Positions 10,288-47,033 of a stretch of DNA of 47,033 nucleotides are shown here, piece by piece. How positions within the stretch are numbered: the first letter of the stretch is position 1; every line of letters begins with the position of its first letter. This DNA is from a virus (lineage: Duplodnaviria > Caudoviricetes). Both the position numbers and the translations under genes were made by a program. A model generated the notes under the pieces. That model worked only from the letters and a program-made list of their open reading frames with translations, searched no databases and was not told where the DNA came from. The stretch is taken from positions 1 through 47,033 of IMG/VR virus record IMGVR_UViG_3300009117_000043. One strand, written 5' to 3'.

Positions 10288-11871
10288 TTAATTTTCTATA
10301 TCTATTGCAATACTTGACTTAAATTCCACCTCAATTCTGTCATCATGCACCGTAACCCTTTCAATAAGCCACCTTACTAATTGCTCGTCATACTCCTCTA
10401 ACTCGCAGGATTGCTCATTCAAGAAATCAGTCATTTCAGCGAGTCGTTGCCTTTTTCCTTCTCGCTCTGCTTTCTCTACTAGTGCATTTTGCTTTAATTC
10501 CCGAAGTCGATAAATTTCATCAGCCACATCTTCATAATCATTCTTTGATTTTGCTTGTATAAGGAGCTGTTGTTGTAACTCTTCCAAATTTCTATCTATA
10601 TCATCGGTGGTATTATCATTTTCTTCATTAAGGACGGTAGCTATGTTTTTCTGTAACACTGATAGGAAGGGTTCTTTGTTAGCCAAAAGTTCATTAATAG
10701 CCTTAACCACTGCTGCCTGTAATGTTTCCTCGTTTATGGTAGGTGCAGTACATTCAGATCCTTTTTCCTCCAATCGACTAACGCATCTCCAAACGATTGA
10801 CTTGTAACCTCGGTTATTCCAATGCACCCGTCGGTAAATATCGCCGCAGTTTCCGCAGTAAACAATACTCGATAAAGCATACTTACTGCTGTAAACTCGC
10901 TTTCTACCACCCTTGCCGCTGCGAAGATTTGCTCTTCGAACCATCTCTTCTTGAACTTGCATAAAAAGTTCACGTGGAATGATAGGCTCATGGCTGTTTT
11001 CTACGTAATACTGGGGAACAATGCCATTATTCTTTACTCGCTTTTTAGAAAGGAAATCAACTGTATATGTTTTTTGTAGAAGGGCATCACCAATATACTT
11101 TTCATTCTGCAGCATCTTTGCAACTACGCTGTCACTCCATTTATCCTTTCCGGTTACCGTCTTGACTCCATCCGTTTCCAGTGCCCTCGTAATTTGCAAA
11201 ATGCTGAAGCCCTCCAGATAAAGGCGAAAAATTCTGCGGACAATCTCCGCTTCCTCCGGCACGATAACCAGCTCTCCATCCTCATCCTTGGTATAGCCTA
11301 AAAATTTATTGTGATTGACAGATACCACCCCATCCTCAAACCTTCGGATCAAGCCCCAGCGCGTATTCTCGCTTAAGTTCCGGCTTTCCTCCTGTGCCTG
11401 GCTGCTTAGGATGGTGATTAAAAGCTCGCCGGTTCCCTCCAGCGTATTAACGCCTTCCTTCTCAAAAACGATACCGATGTTTTTCTCCTTAAGCTTTCGG
11501 ATGTTTTGCAGGGAATCCACCGTGTTTCTGGCGAAGCGGCTGACGGATTTGGTCAGTACAAGGTCAATTTTACCTGCCATGCAGTCCTCAATCATGGCAT
11601 TAAAGTCATCTCTTTTTTTGGTATTAGTTGCAGATTTTCCGTCATCGGCATAAATACCCGCCAGTTTCCAGTTTGGATTCTGCTGAATTTTTTCTGTGTA
11701 GTAGGATACCTGGGCTTCATAGCTGCTCTCCTGCTGTTCCAGCGTGGTGCTGACCCGGCAGTAGGCTGCTACTCTTAAGGCTTTGAACTGCACCTTAATG
11801 CTTCGGTCATATTCCGGCTGTGACGGTATGACGGATATGTTTTTCTTTCTTGTTGTTTGCATATGTTTCAC
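10288..11871 (-). CDS. Large serine recombinase (third of trio)
   Basis: AYCRVST catalytic Ser, KSVSRFARN, recombinase domain, CGNCG zinc ribbon and coiled coil. Confidence 0.95.
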   Translation of the reverse strand: MKHMQTTRKKNISVIPSQPEYDRSIKVQFKALRVAAYCRVSTTLEQQESSYEAQVSYYTEKIQQNPNWKLAGIYADDGKSATNTKKRDDFNAMIEDCMAGKIDLVLTKSVSRFARNTVDSLQNIRKLKEKNIGIVFEKEGVNTLEGTGELLITILSSQAQEESRNLSENTRWGLIRRFEDGVVSVNHNKFLGYTKDEDGELVIVPEEAEIVRRIFRLYLEGFSILQITRALETDGVKTVTGKDKWSDSVVAKMLQNEKYIGDALLQKTYTVDFLSKKRVKNNGIVPQYYVENSHEPIIPRELFMQVQEEMVRRANLRSGKGGRKRVYSSKYALSSIVYCGNCGDIYRRVHWNNRGYKSIVWRCVSRLEEKGSECTAPTINEETLQAAVVKAINELLANKEPFLSVLQKNIATVLNEENDNTTDDIDRNLEELQQQLLIQAKSKNDYEDVADEIYRLRELKQNALVEKAEREGKRQRLAEMTDFLNEQSCELEEYDEQLVRWLIERVTVHDDRIEVEFKSSIAIDIEN

Positions 11872-12785
11872 CCTTTCTTTCGATTTTTATAGGTTTCATG
11901 GACGGTCAGCCCATTGATAAATTCCACATCAATGCGTCCGTCTGCATAAATGACCATCTGTTTTACTATCTGCAAAAACAGTTCCTCATTAAATACTTTT
12001 GGTTGTTCTTTGTCTGAAATCGCCTGCTTCATTCGCTGCGTCTGATGCTCATAATCCTTCACCTGTGCTGTCCGATACAGCATTTCTGCCCTCTGGAAAA
12101 CGAGTGCAGCCAGCTCCTTAGAGGAAAAGCTTCTTTCTTCCTCCAGTAGCTTAATCCTCTGATCCAGCTTCAAAAATTCAGGAGAGTAATGCATTGGAGC
12201 TCCCTTCGGACATTTCTCCAGCAGGGCTGGCATTTTTATAACCTTATTTACGGTAAGGAGAAAAACCTGTTTTAGCTGTTCCTCCGTAATAACGCCGCAG
12301 ACGCAGTGGACTCTGTTTTTATAAATGTAATGCTTGCACTTCCAGTTGGATTGTTCTGAAGGCTTTCCGCAGTGTTCTACATATTTACGGAAGGGTTCAC
12401 CGCATTCTCCGCACCGCAGTCTGCCGCTGAATGGGTTTTGGGCATTCATGCTGTTCGGCTGTACAAACTTCCCCAGCTTTTGGCACTGCTCTTTTCTGCG
12501 GTTTTTGACCTGTTCAAAGAGCTCTGTTTCTATGATTTGGGGATACAGACTGTCCCCTAAGTATTTGATGTTTTCCAAAATCTTGCCGATAGAACCGTGG
12601 TTCCAGGAGGCTTTATTATTGGCATTCAGGATTCCCTTGGCAGTCAGCTCCTTGGCTATGGCATAGGTGGAGGTTCCTGACAGGTAGTCTTGAAAGATTT
12701 TTCTGACCACCCTTACTTTTTCTTCCTCCGGATATATCTTTCCATCCTGCATGCGGTATCCTATTGGCATATGTCTTTGCATCAT
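11868..12785 (-). CDS. Recombinase-domain/zinc-ribbon protein lacking the catalytic resolvase domain (second of trio)
   Basis: Starts at PIGY; has ILENIKYLG and CGECG but no YxRxS motif. Confidence 0.85.
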   Translation of the reverse strand: MMQRHMPIGYRMQDGKIYPEEEKVRVVRKIFQDYLSGTSTYAIAKELTAKGILNANNKASWNHGSIGKILENIKYLGDSLYPQIIETELFEQVKNRRKEQCQKLGKFVQPNSMNAQNPFSGRLRCGECGEPFRKYVEHCGKPSEQSNWKCKHYIYKNRVHCVCGVITEEQLKQVFLLTVNKVIKMPALLEKCPKGAPMHYSPEFLKLDQRIKLLEEERSFSSKELAALVFQRAEMLYRTAQVKDYEHQTQRMKQAISDKEQPKVFNEELFLQIVKQMVIYADGRIDVEFINGLTVHETYKNRKKG

Positions 12786-14401
12786 ACCTGTACTTCCTCC
12801 TTCCCGTAGCGCTCTGTAAGCTCCAGCTTGTTTTTAAGCTGGAAGGTCACGGTATTTCCTGCCGTGATAAGAATCTGCTCCACGCTTTGTAAAAACAAAT
12901 CCTCACGGTACGTTTCCTGTATTCCCGGATGGCTTGCAAAAAGCCCTATTAGCTGTTCTGTATGAAAAATCTCTCTTTCAAAACCGCTGCTGTCAAGCAG
13001 GAGTTTTCTTTTTCTGCGCATGGCATCCAGCTCTACCTGAAGGGCTGTCTGCTTCTCTATAAAAATAGCAGAGTCAAGATATCCCTTTGCGACCACGCCG
13101 CTTAAGATATGACTCTGCTTTGTCAGCTCCATTATTTTTTCATTGCATTCTCTGATTTCCTGTTCCTGCTGTTCATCCGCGCGCAGCCTTTTTAAGGATT
13201 CCAGCAGAGGTGAAAGAATTTCCGTATAGTTACCGGAGAGCTTATTCCACATTACGGTGAATGCCTGCTGTATGATATCCTCTCTAATTGACTTCATCCC
13301 ACACTGCTCCTTGTTCTCGATATGCGTGATACAGCTCCACTGCACTTTTTCATAGGGTTTTCCTATGTAGATTTTCTGACGTCTGAATACCCCGCCGCAT
13401 TCCCCGCATATGATCTTGCTGCTGAATGCATACCGGCTCAGTGACTTCACATCATCGGTCTTCATCTGCTTGCGTCGGTATTCATAAATCTCTTTTACCG
13501 CTTCTGCCTGCTCTTTGCTGATGATAGGTTCGTGGTTTTCAGAAATAAAATACCGAGGCAGCTCCCCCTTGTTTCTTCTTCTCTGAAAGGGTACTACCTC
13601 GGTGGTATAGGTTTTCTGTAATAGTAAATTCCCAGTATAAATTGGATTTTGAAGAATGCCCTTTACTACGCCATCCGTCCATTTTGAGGCACTGCGTATG
13701 GTAGGGATTCCCCTCTCCGTCAATTCTCTGGCAATGACATAGGAGCCTTTACCGTTTAAGTACTCCTTGAAAATATAGCGGACGGCTTCCGCTTCCTGCT
13801 CATCAATGACCAGCTCGCCCTCTGTGTCCTTAGTGTATCCAAGCGCAGGGGTTCCAATTTTAAAGGTACCGTCCTGAAACCGCTTGATTGATGCCCATTT
13901 GTTATTCGTTGAGGTGCTTTCTGCCTCGCCCTGTGCCAGCGAGCTTAAGATAGTCAGCAGCTGTTCACTGTGTTCGGATAGGGTGTTGATATTCTCTTTC
14001 TCGAAAAATACCGCTATTCCAAGAAGCTTCAGCTTGCGGATTGACTGAATGCTGTCAACAGTGTTTCTTGCGAAACGAGTGACCGATTTTGTGAGGATGA
14101 TATCTATTTTTCCGGCTTCGCAGTCTCGCATCATGCGCAGGAAATCATCTCGTTTCTTCAGCTTCGTTCCGCTCCGTGCTTCGTCGGCATAGATTCCGGC
14201 AAATTGCCAATCCTCCCTTTTACTGATCATTTCCTTATAATAGGCGGTCTGTGCAGTAAAGGAATTCTGCTGTTCTCTGGAATCGGTGCTGACTCTGCAG
14301 TAGGCACAGACACGCTTTCTTGGTTCGAGCTGCATGGTAACCTGCGACTTTACAGGATTGATCTTGGTTATTTTTTTAGCCTTGGTCTGCTTATCTGCCA
14401 T
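12782..14401 (-). CDS. Large serine recombinase (first of trio)
   Basis: AYCRVST, KSVTRFARN and CGECGG; aaggaggg RBS before MADKQ. Confidence 0.95.
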   Translation of the reverse strand: MADKQTKAKKITKINPVKSQVTMQLEPRKRVCAYCRVSTDSREQQNSFTAQTAYYKEMISKREDWQFAGIYADEARSGTKLKKRDDFLRMMRDCEAGKIDIILTKSVTRFARNTVDSIQSIRKLKLLGIAVFFEKENINTLSEHSEQLLTILSSLAQGEAESTSTNNKWASIKRFQDGTFKIGTPALGYTKDTEGELVIDEQEAEAVRYIFKEYLNGKGSYVIARELTERGIPTIRSASKWTDGVVKGILQNPIYTGNLLLQKTYTTEVVPFQRRRNKGELPRYFISENHEPIISKEQAEAVKEIYEYRRKQMKTDDVKSLSRYAFSSKIICGECGGVFRRQKIYIGKPYEKVQWSCITHIENKEQCGMKSIREDIIQQAFTVMWNKLSGNYTEILSPLLESLKRLRADEQQEQEIRECNEKIMELTKQSHILSGVVAKGYLDSAIFIEKQTALQVELDAMRRKRKLLLDSSGFEREIFHTEQLIGLFASHPGIQETYREDLFLQSVEQILITAGNTVTFQLKNKLELTERYGKEEVQV

Positions 14402-14481
14402 GGTTTTCCCCTCCTTTCTGACAGGATTACCTCCTGTTAGCAACATACATTACCACACAAGCTTTTGAATAGCTAGTGTTA

Positions 14482-14643
14482 TTACACATATACTTTTGCA
14501 AGCTCAGGAAGGAAGGTCTGGCGGTTCAAATCATCGATTTTTTCATATTCTTCTTGGGTAATCAGCCCGTTACGGAGCATAATCGTAAGCAGCTTCAAGG
14601 TGATTTTATACTTGACTTCATTGGCTGTCTGTTCCTTTGACAT
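14482..14643 (-). CDS. Small SHOCT-like protein (53 aa) preceding the recombinase trio
   Basis: Not in the ORF track. aaggagg RBS; MSKEQTANEVKYK...MLRNGLITQEEYEKID...LAKVYV. Confidence 0.75.
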   Translation of the reverse strand: MSKEQTANEVKYKITLKLLTIMLRNGLITQEEYEKIDDLNRQTFLPELAKVYV

Positions 14644-15091: not shown

Positions 15092-15150
15092 AAAATAGGG
15101 ATCACCCTTTTGCTTGATTTTAAAGGCATGCAAAATGATAGAGTGATCCC
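15092..15150 (-). terminator. Terminator-like hairpin upstream of mazF
   Basis: gggatcac...gtgatccc stem followed by tattttt on the minus strand. Confidence 0.5.
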
Positions 15151-15246
15151 CATTGCTTCTGACATTAAGACATTTAAAATTCAAAGTGCTTCATTCGACA
15201 CTACTCCCCAAGCACACAAAGCCCATGTTATATCGGGCTTATAGGG

Positions 15247-15607
15247 CGATGACCTGAACTGCGGCTGGCTTCACCGCATCATGGGAATTTCACCCCCGCC
15301 AGGATCTCTGCCGGCTGCCCTCATTGCGTGTTCCCCCGTTCAAGGGGGGCTGTGACTGGACAGAAGTATCAATATAGGCTGACGGGGTCATTGCGAAACA
15401 GGCTGCCACAGCCTGTTTTTTGGTCGGATGGGTACCGCTTTGCACCTTATTTGGCCGTCTTTGATAGCTCGGTAATGAGAAGCCCTGAACAGAAAAAATA
15501 TAAGTCTATGCTTTGTGTTCTCATCGCCGTACTACAGGTGGTCTTGGCGCATCCTCCAAGGTCGCTTTCCTTTTCGAGGCCCGTCAGCTAATGTATTCAG
15601 GTCATCG
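15247..15607 (-). ncRNA. Putative large (~360 nt) structured RNA
   Basis: 12-bp closing stem cgatgacctgaa (15247-15258)/ttcaggtcatcg (15596-15607), nested gctgacggg (15378-15386)/cccgtcagc (15580-15588), hairpin aaacaggctg/cagcctgttt (15396-15418), and no credible ORF. Confidence 0.6.
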
Positions 15608-15616
15608 GATATGAAA

Positions 15617-15629
15617 TTTTCAAAGAGCA
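15617..15629 (-). promoter_or_regulatory. boxA-like antitermination element
   Basis: TGCTCTTTGAAAA on the minus strand; a second GCACTTTGAA lies at about 15180-15189. Confidence 0.6.
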
Positions 15630-15696
15630 ACGAGGGAGAATAGAAAACCCCCTCACTACTAAGCCGATTTCGTGAGGGGGCTGCACGGAAATATTT

Positions 15697-44898: not shown

Positions 44899-47033
44899 GA
44901 TGTTGATTCCTCCTGTTCTTTATTGATTTTTCGCAAAAAATAAGCGATGCCACGGAGGATAAAATCCACACATGGTATCGCAACGCTGTTGCCCAGCGCC
45001 TTGTACCGGGCAGAGTCCGATGCGCCCGGAATCAGAGTCCAGCCATCGGGGAATCCTTGGAGCCGTTCGCACTCCAAAGGAGTAAGCCTGCGGATGAGGT
45101 TTCGTCTCTCCACGATGCATTTATCCTGGCTGACATACTGATTACCGACACCCTTTTCATCCCCCCGGCAAAGGGAACCTACCACATCCTGATATGGTTC
45201 GCATACCGCATGGCGGTCGCTGGTAGTTATGGTATAGCTGATATCTGGCTGACAGCCTAAACCGTTGCCTCCATTTTCCGGCTCCCGGTCAATGATATTT
45301 CCCGCGATGCAAATGGTTTTCTGCAAAACGGGGTTTCCTACAAGCGGAACATTATTGCCACCTGTACCCATCCGGGCGGCGAGGGTTGGGGCTACGCCAA
45401 GCGGACCGTTGTATCTGCCATCCTTGGGATGGTTTTCAAATAACACCGGCTGGTTGTTGCCAGAGGTTCCGGCGGCAGATGTGATGGTTGGGCAAATCCC
45501 TGCTCCAATTTCTGCACCACCCTGCTGAGTCGCCATAACCAATGGCTGATGCCCATGCTCCTGGGCGCGTAGAGTTCCTGTAATGTCGTCGGTGCAGTGC
45601 ATTTGGCTGCCGCCCTGATCATTTAAGCAGAGGACGGTTGGTGCAGTGCCTGTTTTCAGCGTAGGGGAACATTCCTCCTGAAAGCCAATTCCCCCGGCAT
45701 CCCCGCTTGCACTGCCGCAGAATCCTGCAGCAAACAGCAGACCGCCCGGATTTCTGCCTCCACCGCCGTCTGCCCCTGCAAGCGTAGGCGCAGCTCCACC
45801 TGCTGTGAACACTCTGCTTTGCTGGGTATCCCAGCTATTCAGGCAGTTGGGCTGTGCAACAAGGGGAGGATAACCGCCCATGCCCGCACGGAGTGTAGGT
45901 GTGACTTCCTCAGTGATGTCCATCCGCTCCCCACCCTGGTCATTTAAGCAGATCAGCGGTTCCGTAACGAAGGTCATCTGCATATTTCGGGTCGCAAGCA
46001 GTGCACCGGATATGCCATGAAGGTCGATTACCTCATCTCTTTGGTTCACATGAAATGTATTGACTTCTTTGGTTTCCGCAACAAAGGTCTGCTGTTTTAT
46101 ACCCGGCTGAGCCTGTATTGCCCCAGCGATATCATGCAGGTCACGAACCTCATCACGCTGATTGGCTGCAAAAGCCACTACTGTTTTTTCTTGTGTCTGG
46201 ATATATCCATGGCCGCCGCCCTCTCCGCTATAGAGAGCCGGCCATGTCCCTGTTTCCTCAAAAATGCGGCGGCTCTGCACATCCCATGGGGTCAGGCAAG
46301 CCCCGCCTGTATCATCAGTGCTTCCCTCAGCTGAGGCGGAAGCTCCTTGCCTCTCGCCTCGGCTCTCCGCAATATTCCCAAACAGGCTGTCTTGCTTAAA
46401 TAATATTTCGGGTGCGGTGAGTCCTCCAAAATCTGCGACAAGGAAGATACGACGGCGACGCTGGGCGACTCCCCAGAATTGAGCGTCCAAGACACGCCAA
46501 GCAAGGCTGAATTCACCTCCCAGAAAGACAGCCCCAGCAGATTCCCAGCGCCCGTACTCAGGTCGAGGCACATCACAGGAACTGTCCTTGATGCGGACGA
46601 TCTCCTCAATGACCGCCCGGAAGTCCTCGCCCTCTGCGGAGCTGAAGGCTCCGGGGACATTTTCCCAAACGAGGTATCGAGGTCGAACAAGGTAATTTGG
46701 TATGCTTCGCTGCTCATCGGCTTTTCTCATCTCCTTCGTGATTCGTGTCTGCTCCATAAATAAGCCGGAGCGTTCCCCTGCAAGTCCTGCACGCTGACCC
46801 GCAACCGATAAATCCTGACAGGGTGAGCCGCCGCAGATAACATCCACAGGTGGAAGAACCGCTCCATCCAGCTTTGTAATATCCCCGACATGGAGCATTT
46901 CGGGGAATCGAATTTTCGTCACTTCAATGGGGAAGGCTTCGATTTCGCTTGCCCACAAAGGCGTAATACCATTTCGGACAGCGGCAAGTGGAAAGCCTCC
47001 GATTCCATCAAAGAGGCTCCCCATTGTCATCAT
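44874..47033 (-). CDS. C5 DNA cytosine methyltransferase with an expanded variable region
   Basis: SLFDGIGG (I), GGSPCQ (IV), WENVPG (VI), QRRRRIF (VIII), RRLTPLECERLQGFP and GNSV. The start lies at the window edge. Confidence 0.93.
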   Translation of the reverse strand: MMTMGSLFDGIGGFPLAAVRNGITPLWASEIEAFPIEVTKIRFPEMLHVGDITKLDGAVLPPVDVICGGSPCQDLSVAGQRAGLAGERSGLFMEQTRITKEMRKADEQRSIPNYLVRPRYLVWENVPGAFSSAEGEDFRAVIEEIVRIKDSSCDVPRPEYGRWESAGAVFLGGEFSLAWRVLDAQFWGVAQRRRRIFLVADFGGLTAPEILFKQDSLFGNIAESRGERQGASASAEGSTDDTGGACLTPWDVQSRRIFEETGTWPALYSGEGGGHGYIQTQEKTVVAFAANQRDEVRDLHDIAGAIQAQPGIKQQTFVAETKEVNTFHVNQRDEVIDLHGISGALLATRNMQMTFVTEPLICLNDQGGERMDITEEVTPTLRAGMGGYPPLVAQPNCLNSWDTQQSRVFTAGGAAPTLAGADGGGGRNPGGLLFAAGFCGSASGDAGGIGFQEECSPTLKTGTAPTVLCLNDQGGSQMHCTDDITGTLRAQEHGHQPLVMATQQGGAEIGAGICPTITSAAGTSGNNQPVLFENHPKDGRYNGPLGVAPTLAARMGTGGNNVPLVGNPVLQKTICIAGNIIDREPENGGNGLGCQPDISYTITTSDRHAVCEPYQDVVGSLCRGDEKGVGNQYVSQDKCIVERRNLIRRLTPLECERLQGFPDGWTLIPGASDSARYKALGNSVAIPCVDFILRGIAYFLRKINKEQEESTSCTSTPTT
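46292..46717 (-). CDS. Nested alternative-frame ORF, putative second (beta-like) methyltransferase subunit
   Basis: Same strand, different frame; has a protein-like C-terminus SLSQILE..PKYYLSKTACLGILRRAEARGKELP..L. Confidence 0.6.
   Translation of the reverse strand: MSSEAYQITLFDLDTSFGKMSPEPSAPQRARTSGRSLRRSSASRTVPVMCLDLSTGAGNLLGLSFWEVNSALLGVSWTLNSGESPSVAVVSSLSQILEDSPHPKYYLSKTACLGILRRAEARGKELPPQLREALMIQAGLA

Follow-up and report, generated by a model that had tools for sequence, protein, structure and literature searches.

What is encoded in the gene-free gap that separates a sigma factor gene from a toxin-like gene in a conjugative element, and what might it do there? The window, i.e. the complete 47,033-nucleotide stretch analysed here, carries the genes of a MobL/MobP3 relaxase, a coupling protein, a VirB4-like ATPase and three large serine recombinases; the record stops within a methylase ORF at position 47033, the other end of the element lying outside the window. 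The gap is found on the minus strand, as are all window features described below. It lies between the gene of an element-encoded, single-subunit sigma-70 region-4/ECF-like factor of 139 amino acids (16116-15697; Pfam Sigma70_r4 E 3.6e-4 and TIGR02937 E 1.3e-7, both below cut-off) and an EndoA-like PemK/MazF-family gene (15065-14682; PF02452 E 6.7e-32, EndoA structures E 5e-35) that has no adjacent antitoxin gene and is followed by a small SHOCT_2 ORF and the recombinase genes (10288-14643). A sequence-only reading had proposed that the gap specifies a large, boxA-flanked RNA of an undescribed system, controlling read-through into the excision genes or acting in trans, possibly on MazF.

Homology to the Rfam pemK motif and to canT of Tn916

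The segment 15375-15279 matches the pemK motif of Rfam (RF02913) over the full model, positions 1-61, with 67.3 bits against a cut-off of 34.8, and is the sole copy within the record. The motif was also found in the orf8-xis gap of the Tn916-type element of pCF10 (locus L025, 2323-2423, 55 bits) and in that of a vanB element (57.8 bits), five of the six scanned loci being positive. This gap is canT, which Wirachman and Grossman (2024, PMC11658703) have shown, according to the accessible sections of their report on Tn916, to be a processive antiterminator that works in cis and is orientation-specific. It is needed for the expression of the transfer genes after circularisation and for mating, and is essential for Tn916 transfer, but is not needed for excision. 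It overcomes intrinsic terminators even when the other genes of the element are absent, works constitutively from a heterologous promoter, and did not complement in trans. Its discoverers, who favour direct contact with the polymerase, were unable to interpret its structure or to recognise distant copies, and the accessible sections of their main text hold no boxA, pemK motif or covariation model.

The inactivating S3 change of that study, at +283 after orf8, falls on positions 1-3 of the Rfam model, where both Tn916 and the window (15375-15373) read AUA, and the inactivating deletion Δ162 (+229 to +390) removes the entire pemK motif; an older Tn5 insertion maps to the P7 loop of canT. It is assumed for this mapping that the element of pCF10 and Tn916 are identical in this region; the S3 triplet and codon 30 of orf5 do read as published. 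Active fragments include one of 452 bp, which begins at +126, and shorter ones of 341-400 bp (PMC11658703).

The window and canT are identical at 152 of 291 aligned positions (52%). A profile of the 27 loci with a split sigma factor recovers window positions 15630-15257 (E 5.1e-21), and a profile of 17 single-sigma loci recovers canT (E 3.4e-26); for the 5' half alone the two subgroups match each other only weakly (E about 2e-3 when boxA is included), and without boxA no match is detected. Homology thus extends over nearly the whole domain, with the same helices maintained by compensatory changes, the S3 site kept and the same location after the element sigma gene and before the recombination genes. 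The loci differ in that canT is preceded by the split sig7/sig8 pair and precedes xis-int, whereas the window RNA follows a single sigma gene and precedes pemK and serine recombinases; the window RNA moreover has a longer P4 arm and an extra 3' hairpin domain. Judged by its sequence, the window RNA, roughly 360-450 nt in length, is a distant homologue of canT and belongs to an already known kind of RNA. The likeness to the Tn916 orf8-xis gap, which the sequence-only reading had pointed out, was correct, as the pemK match and the cross-profile matches indicate. Its claim of an undescribed system has to be withdrawn: an Rfam match had been named beforehand as one refuting outcome, the pemK family does match, and canT was published in 2024. 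What the comparison of homologues contributes is a detailed predicted fold and a boxA signal of the rRNA type.

A search with a core pattern yielded 22 viral stretches and at least 120 genome loci. From a total of 150 loci, 142 contained the core and 57 were left after dropping short-flank and >92%-identical copies; the alignment, built from sequence alone, comprises the 54 that carry a 5' box, L014, L054 and L063 being left out. The core columns of this alignment are invariant by construction, as they formed the search pattern. With the pemK motif joined to it, canT gains many relatives, the matches of one core pattern alone being estimated at 1,500 stored GTDB stretches, and the extended family spans elements with tyrosine and with serine recombinases. 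The Rfam model covers 97 of ~440 nt, lacking boxA, P1-P5, P9, the kissing loop and P11, and the family carries no assigned function. Two plasmid elements of C. perfringens and C. difficile (L029:2215-2454 and L030:2215-2437) retain the box and the 5' half (profile E 1e-15), but their core has diverged so far that Rfam scores it barely or not at all; the family is wider than RF02913.

Among 51 loci (145 ORFs examined) the upstream ORF encoded an HTH_16 (sig8-type) protein in 25 and a sigma region 4 protein in 17, and the downstream ORF was a recombination-module gene in 26, PemK in 13 and uninformative in 12. With the window and two annotated plasmid loci included, a sigma subunit is found upstream in 45 of 54 loci, a recombination-module gene downstream in 28, and in 14 pemK separates the RNA from the recombinases. 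The RNA therefore tracks the sigma-recombination module and not the toxin, and its placement on the sense strand, after the element sigma gene and ahead of the recombination genes, is that of canT.

No publication was found that ties the pemK motif to canT or gives its fold or boxA, within an incomplete coverage of the literature. Among the matches listed, nothing relevant was found on boxA in conjugative elements; of the literature since 2024 on canT and antiterminators only the Tn916 work was relevant, and 'pemK RNA' occurred solely as a test family or in passing. The term 'pemK' is absent from the main text of PMC11109978 and from the accessible sections of the main text of PMC5737381, the paper defining the Rfam motif set. 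A blastn search of the gap gave no plasmid match and three unannotated phage-collection records, and a scan of viral contigs with the sigma protein gave no confirmed candidate. Contigs from two sequencing runs presumed to be of RNA gave only short matches of low identity, which are uninformative on transcription.

Predicted fold and flanking signals

The main domain (15607-15247, 361 nt) is closed by P1, a perfect 12-bp stem (15607-15596 with 15258-15247) that encloses the nested 9-bp stem P2 (15588-15580 with 15386-15378); both stems had been described beforehand and were recovered on the minus strand. When the gap was shuffled with its dinucleotide content kept, 3 of 300 shuffles contained a perfect 12-bp inverted repeat; folding z-scores were -5.7 for the gap (20 shuffles) and -5.2 for the domain (100 shuffles). 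The gap had also been called GC-rich, which it is only mildly (47.9% against 45.7% for the window; 52.9% in the core).

The predicted covariation among homologues was found, as compensatory changes counted on the tree against the number expected: 25 versus 0.8 for P1, 21 versus 1.8 for P2, 9 versus 0.5 for P4a, 9 versus 0.8 for P4c, 14 versus 1.1 for P5 (15418-15396), 13 versus 0.3 for P6, 29 versus 1.0 for P7 and 17 versus 0.5 for P9 (15278-15260). P3 and P4b gave no tree-aware signal in the 54 homologues (1 and 0 events), and the alignment register of P4c is poor (54% paired). In an unbiased mutual-information scan of 32,385 column pairs of the alignment the Watson-Crick pairs ranked at the top, including those of P1, P2, P4, P5, P6, P7 and P9 and a loop-loop pair (columns 328:510); RNAalifold independently recovered P1, P2, P4b and P6-P9. 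In the 60-pair model, which was derived from the same alignment, 85.8% of the cells are paired, against 64.8% after shuffling and 37-47% after sliding. In a held-out set from metagenomes, 120 loci were reduced to 70 that had flanks and to 31 distinct ones, of which 23 had a box and were aligned. Here cognate pairing was higher than swapped pairing for P1 (0.89/0.62), P2 (0.68/0.46), the kissing loop (0.80/0.60) and P9 (0.71/0.52), with no excess for P5 (0.52 vs 0.54) or P4b (0.92 vs 0.93, invariant).

The conserved core (15375-15279), equal to the pemK motif, consists of AUAUUGAUACU, P6, P7 and the hairpin P8 (GGGGUGAAAUUCCC). We presume the latter to be T-loop-like and liken it to the T-loops of FMN riboswitches and group II introns. 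An origin of the RNA from either kind was considered and rejected, no group II intron or riboswitch match being found in Rfam at E up to 10.

The 5' subdomain (15588-15378) includes a three-way junction and two internal loops that are kink-turn-like, i.e. they agree in sequence with the pattern of a 3-nt bulge followed by tandem G.A/A.G pairs beside a canonical stem (definition from the accessible part of PMC5061560). Motif A (15567-15563/15395-15387) has both tandem G.A positions in 25 of 54 homologues, and motif B (15549-15541/15441-15436), located in the P4 arm, which also has a variable extension, in 41 of 54; the window carries an AA variant at both. The loop of P5 (UGGC, 15408-15405) and that of P9 (GCCA, 15269-15266) are complementary and would form a kissing loop. 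The kissing-loop columns are paired in 89.6% of the cells with 8 compensatory events against 0.4 expected, and base changes in one loop are matched in the other: the window has UGGC/GCCA and Tn916 has UAGC/GCUA, and UGGU/ACCA and CAGC/GCUG occur elsewhere. The orf5(A30*) change, reported in the accessible text as neutral for Tn916 mating in B. subtilis (PMC11658703), alters two of the four kissing-loop bases in P9 of Tn916, so the pseudoknot appears not to be essential for mating in that host.

Downstream of P1 the window's subgroup carries an additional hairpin, P11 (15215-15186, GUGCUU/AAGCAC), with a conserved 18-nt loop; its stem is paired at 0.91 against 0.51 when swapped. All 23 loci of the subgroup show the loop pattern, which was designed after inspection, and none of the 27 split-sigma loci does. 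The second boxA of the sequence-only reading (GCACTTTGAA, 15189-15180) does exist as a word; it is, however, the 3' arm of P11, and of the 54 loci only the window itself has it 3' of the RNA. A CCC after P1 (15246-15244) and a GGG opening the P11 loop (15209-15206) recur across the subgroup and could form a second pseudoknot, both being invariant and thus incapable of giving a covariation signal. A long imperfect stem (15173-15080), similar in close relatives, precedes pemK. Of the terminator-like stem proposed here the long stem (15156-15095) was found, but it was not called as a terminator and the U-run is missing in several relatives; neither terminator prediction in the window nor comparison of relatives revealed a conserved terminator downstream of the RNA. 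A stretch of 17 nt in the same stem (15171-15155) is an inverted match (88%) to the 5' leader of the sigma gene (16168-16152), 980 nt apart, which may be chance.

At the 5' end of the RNA a boxA (TGCTCTTTGAAAA, 15629-15617) is present as had been claimed, and it is conserved: 50 of 57 homologues carry a strict box at a distance of 180-400 nt upstream of the core, compared with 41 of 680 control windows, and a G outside the selection pattern is kept in 53 of 54. The pattern derived from it gave 44 matches in five genomes versus 7 for the reversed control, with a sense-strand match 91-474 nt after 12 of 20 16S genes; a relaxed pattern found a spacer box at 10 of 10 16S loci examined. In one genome (G004) all five matches are four rRNA spacers plus the canT-type RNA, and in the other four (G001, G002, G003 and G005) most matches lie outside the 16S spacers and the examined RNA; these may represent further such RNAs, tRNA clusters or CRISPR leaders. 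B. subtilis NusB binds the rrn boxA of consensus AUGAUCUUUGAAA, as given in the accessible part of PMC13753749. The box of the canT-type RNAs is thus the same 13-nt signal as in the rRNA spacers of hosts carrying such elements, single-stranded and at the 5' end of a long untranslated RNA, with the difference that it precedes a structured RNA which is itself required in Tn916. The 452-bp active fragment of canT starts inside the box and retains only its 3' half, TTGAAAAC, and the shorter fragments were active too, so boxA may be dispensable in that short-range reporter. The box could also be read as the -35 hexamer of a sigma-70 promoter, about 31 of 54 copies having TTGACA; this reading was rejected because no -10 element follows at constant spacing and the next conserved block lies at a variable distance. 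Locus L213 has a degenerate box and a consensus TTGACA/TATAAT promoter ~110 nt upstream, which suggests capture by the housekeeping sigma factor.

Just before boxA lies a putative start region for the element sigma factor (15690-15648), comprising an AT-rich run, a variable spacer and AGTGAGGGG (15657-15649); it is similar to the region ahead of sig7 in Tn916. The hairpin previously noted after the sigma stop (15680-15648) exists in the window; as a hairpin it is not conserved, and what it carries is this conserved promoter-like word. The corresponding pattern VYGARRGR was chosen after inspecting the data. Of the single-sigma loci, 12 of 18 have it at 10-65 nt upstream of boxA, and none of the 27 split-sigma loci does; in the latter it is found upstream of sig7 instead (18 of 25; control 2 of 17). 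The background is 100 in 2670 windows of 55 nt. The Tn916 position upstream of sig7 falls within the fragment cloned as Psig7, according to the accessible part of bioRxiv 10.64898/2026.10.01.756105. We infer that in the window's subgroup the element-sigma promoter, which in Tn916 would lie ahead of the sigma gene, was relocated to directly before boxA.

Proposed mode of action

We expect, with a probability of roughly 75%, that the window RNA is a cis-acting processive antiterminator like canT. In the window this assignment is based on homology, position, the covarying fold and the identity of boxA; antitermination as such has been shown for Tn916 only. The element sigma factor would start transcription near 15657, the nascent RNA would fold into a compact multi-helix shape, and the folded RNA would modify RNA polymerase such that later terminators are read through, the 5' boxA being predicted to recruit host NusB-S10 as in ribosomal RNA operons. 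The transcript would then pass pemK, SHOCT and the three recombinases and, after circularisation, cross the junction into the conjugation genes; terminators are predicted along this path at 1225-1196, 34523-34496 and 16512-16479. The earlier suggestion that the RNA controls read-through agrees with the tested function of canT, but the excision genes were probably the wrong target, since canT is needed for the transfer genes and not for excision.

Whether NusB-S10 is loaded at boxA as a helper or the RNA acts through direct polymerase binding alone is a matter of about even odds. An antiterminator that binds RNA polymerase directly, like put of HK022, and that does not need boxA for terminator read-through has a chance that falls somewhat short of one half; the box would then only speed transcription, aid co-transcriptional folding or guard against Rho. 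Direct binding is the explanation favoured by the canT authors and fits both the active fragment without the 5' half of the box and the action of canT on intrinsic terminators without other element genes, whereas the retention of the box in 50 of 57 diverged copies, down to the unselected G, and the restriction of its matches in G004 to rRNA spacers and the canT-type RNA argue against a box without a role in read-through. A more specific proposal, which we put forward tentatively and consider rather less probable than its opposite, is that canT-family RNAs are rRNA-style antitermination cassettes of Firmicutes conjugative elements, the sigma promoter of one subgroup having moved directly before boxA. 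In such a cassette boxA would load host NusB-S10, and the 270-450-nt fold, with its two kink-turns, kissing loop and T-loop core, would dock on RNA polymerase. With the promoter downstream of the sigma gene, the sigma factor would be amplified only by a transcript circling the whole excised element. A role of boxA, if true, would tie the transfer of mobile elements to host Nus factors and offer a possible point for blocking their spread; the covariation model and the box together provide specific nucleotides for tests.

Other functions are less compatible with the data than antitermination. It is improbable that the RNA is a discrete, stable molecule that acts in trans or serves as a scaffold, antitermination being secondary or specific to Tn916. 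Stable RNAs typically have features such as the stem closing the 5' and 3' ends, the kissing loop, the kink-turn-like motifs and the additional 3' domain seen here, and the kissing loop is conserved though apparently dispensable for mating of Tn916, but no conserved terminator follows the RNA, its position between sigma and recombination genes is fixed, and the failure of canT to complement in trans speaks against the action in trans proposed earlier. A ligand-sensing riboswitch or attenuator of the downstream operon, to which the invariant core nucleotides (partly built in by the search pattern), the T-loop-like hairpin and the 5' position might point, seems very unlikely given that no riboswitch family matched, that no conserved alternative terminator was found and that canT is constitutive from a heterologous promoter. 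We assign an equally small chance to an RNA antitoxin, or a dedicated regulator or substrate of the downstream MazF. The RNA does lie directly upstream of an apparently intact EndoA-like gene without an adjacent antitoxin gene, and Rfam named the motif after pemK; action on MazF is nevertheless unlikely, as pemK follows in only 14 of 54 copies, and tandem repeats as in type III antitoxin RNAs were not found. The word UACAU, which we take to be the EndoA cleavage site, occurs in J1/2 of 2 of 14 pemK-linked and 11 of 40 other copies, and a link of this word to pemK was rejected for lack of association. The conAn system of pLS20, which looks unrelated, provides a further comparison: a ~300-nt cis RNA with terminal inverted repeats gives processive antitermination of the conjugation operon, as described in the accessible part of PMC8191782. 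conAn requires the protein ConAn1 encoded upstream, whereas here the upstream gene specifies a sigma subunit (45 of 54 loci).

Other features of the element

Two very large genes for surface proteins with S-layer homology (1506 and 2175 amino acids, 28097-16622), with near-duplicate 3' segments, are located between the transfer genes and the sigma gene. Directly after the S-layer gene a c-di-GMP-I riboswitch (83.2 bits) and a strong terminator are found (16607-16479), ~360 nt before the sigma gene; within the flanks examined this arrangement occurs in 1 of 54 loci. Its position ahead of the sigma gene suggests that c-di-GMP may gate read-through into the element sigma factor. Finally, the window contains a mef(A) macrolide efflux gene (6447-4955), preceded by a match to the Rfam family sRNA_1300 (245 bits) that is probably its attenuator leader, and followed by nucleotidyltransferase, methyltransferase, HD, GrpB and AAA genes.
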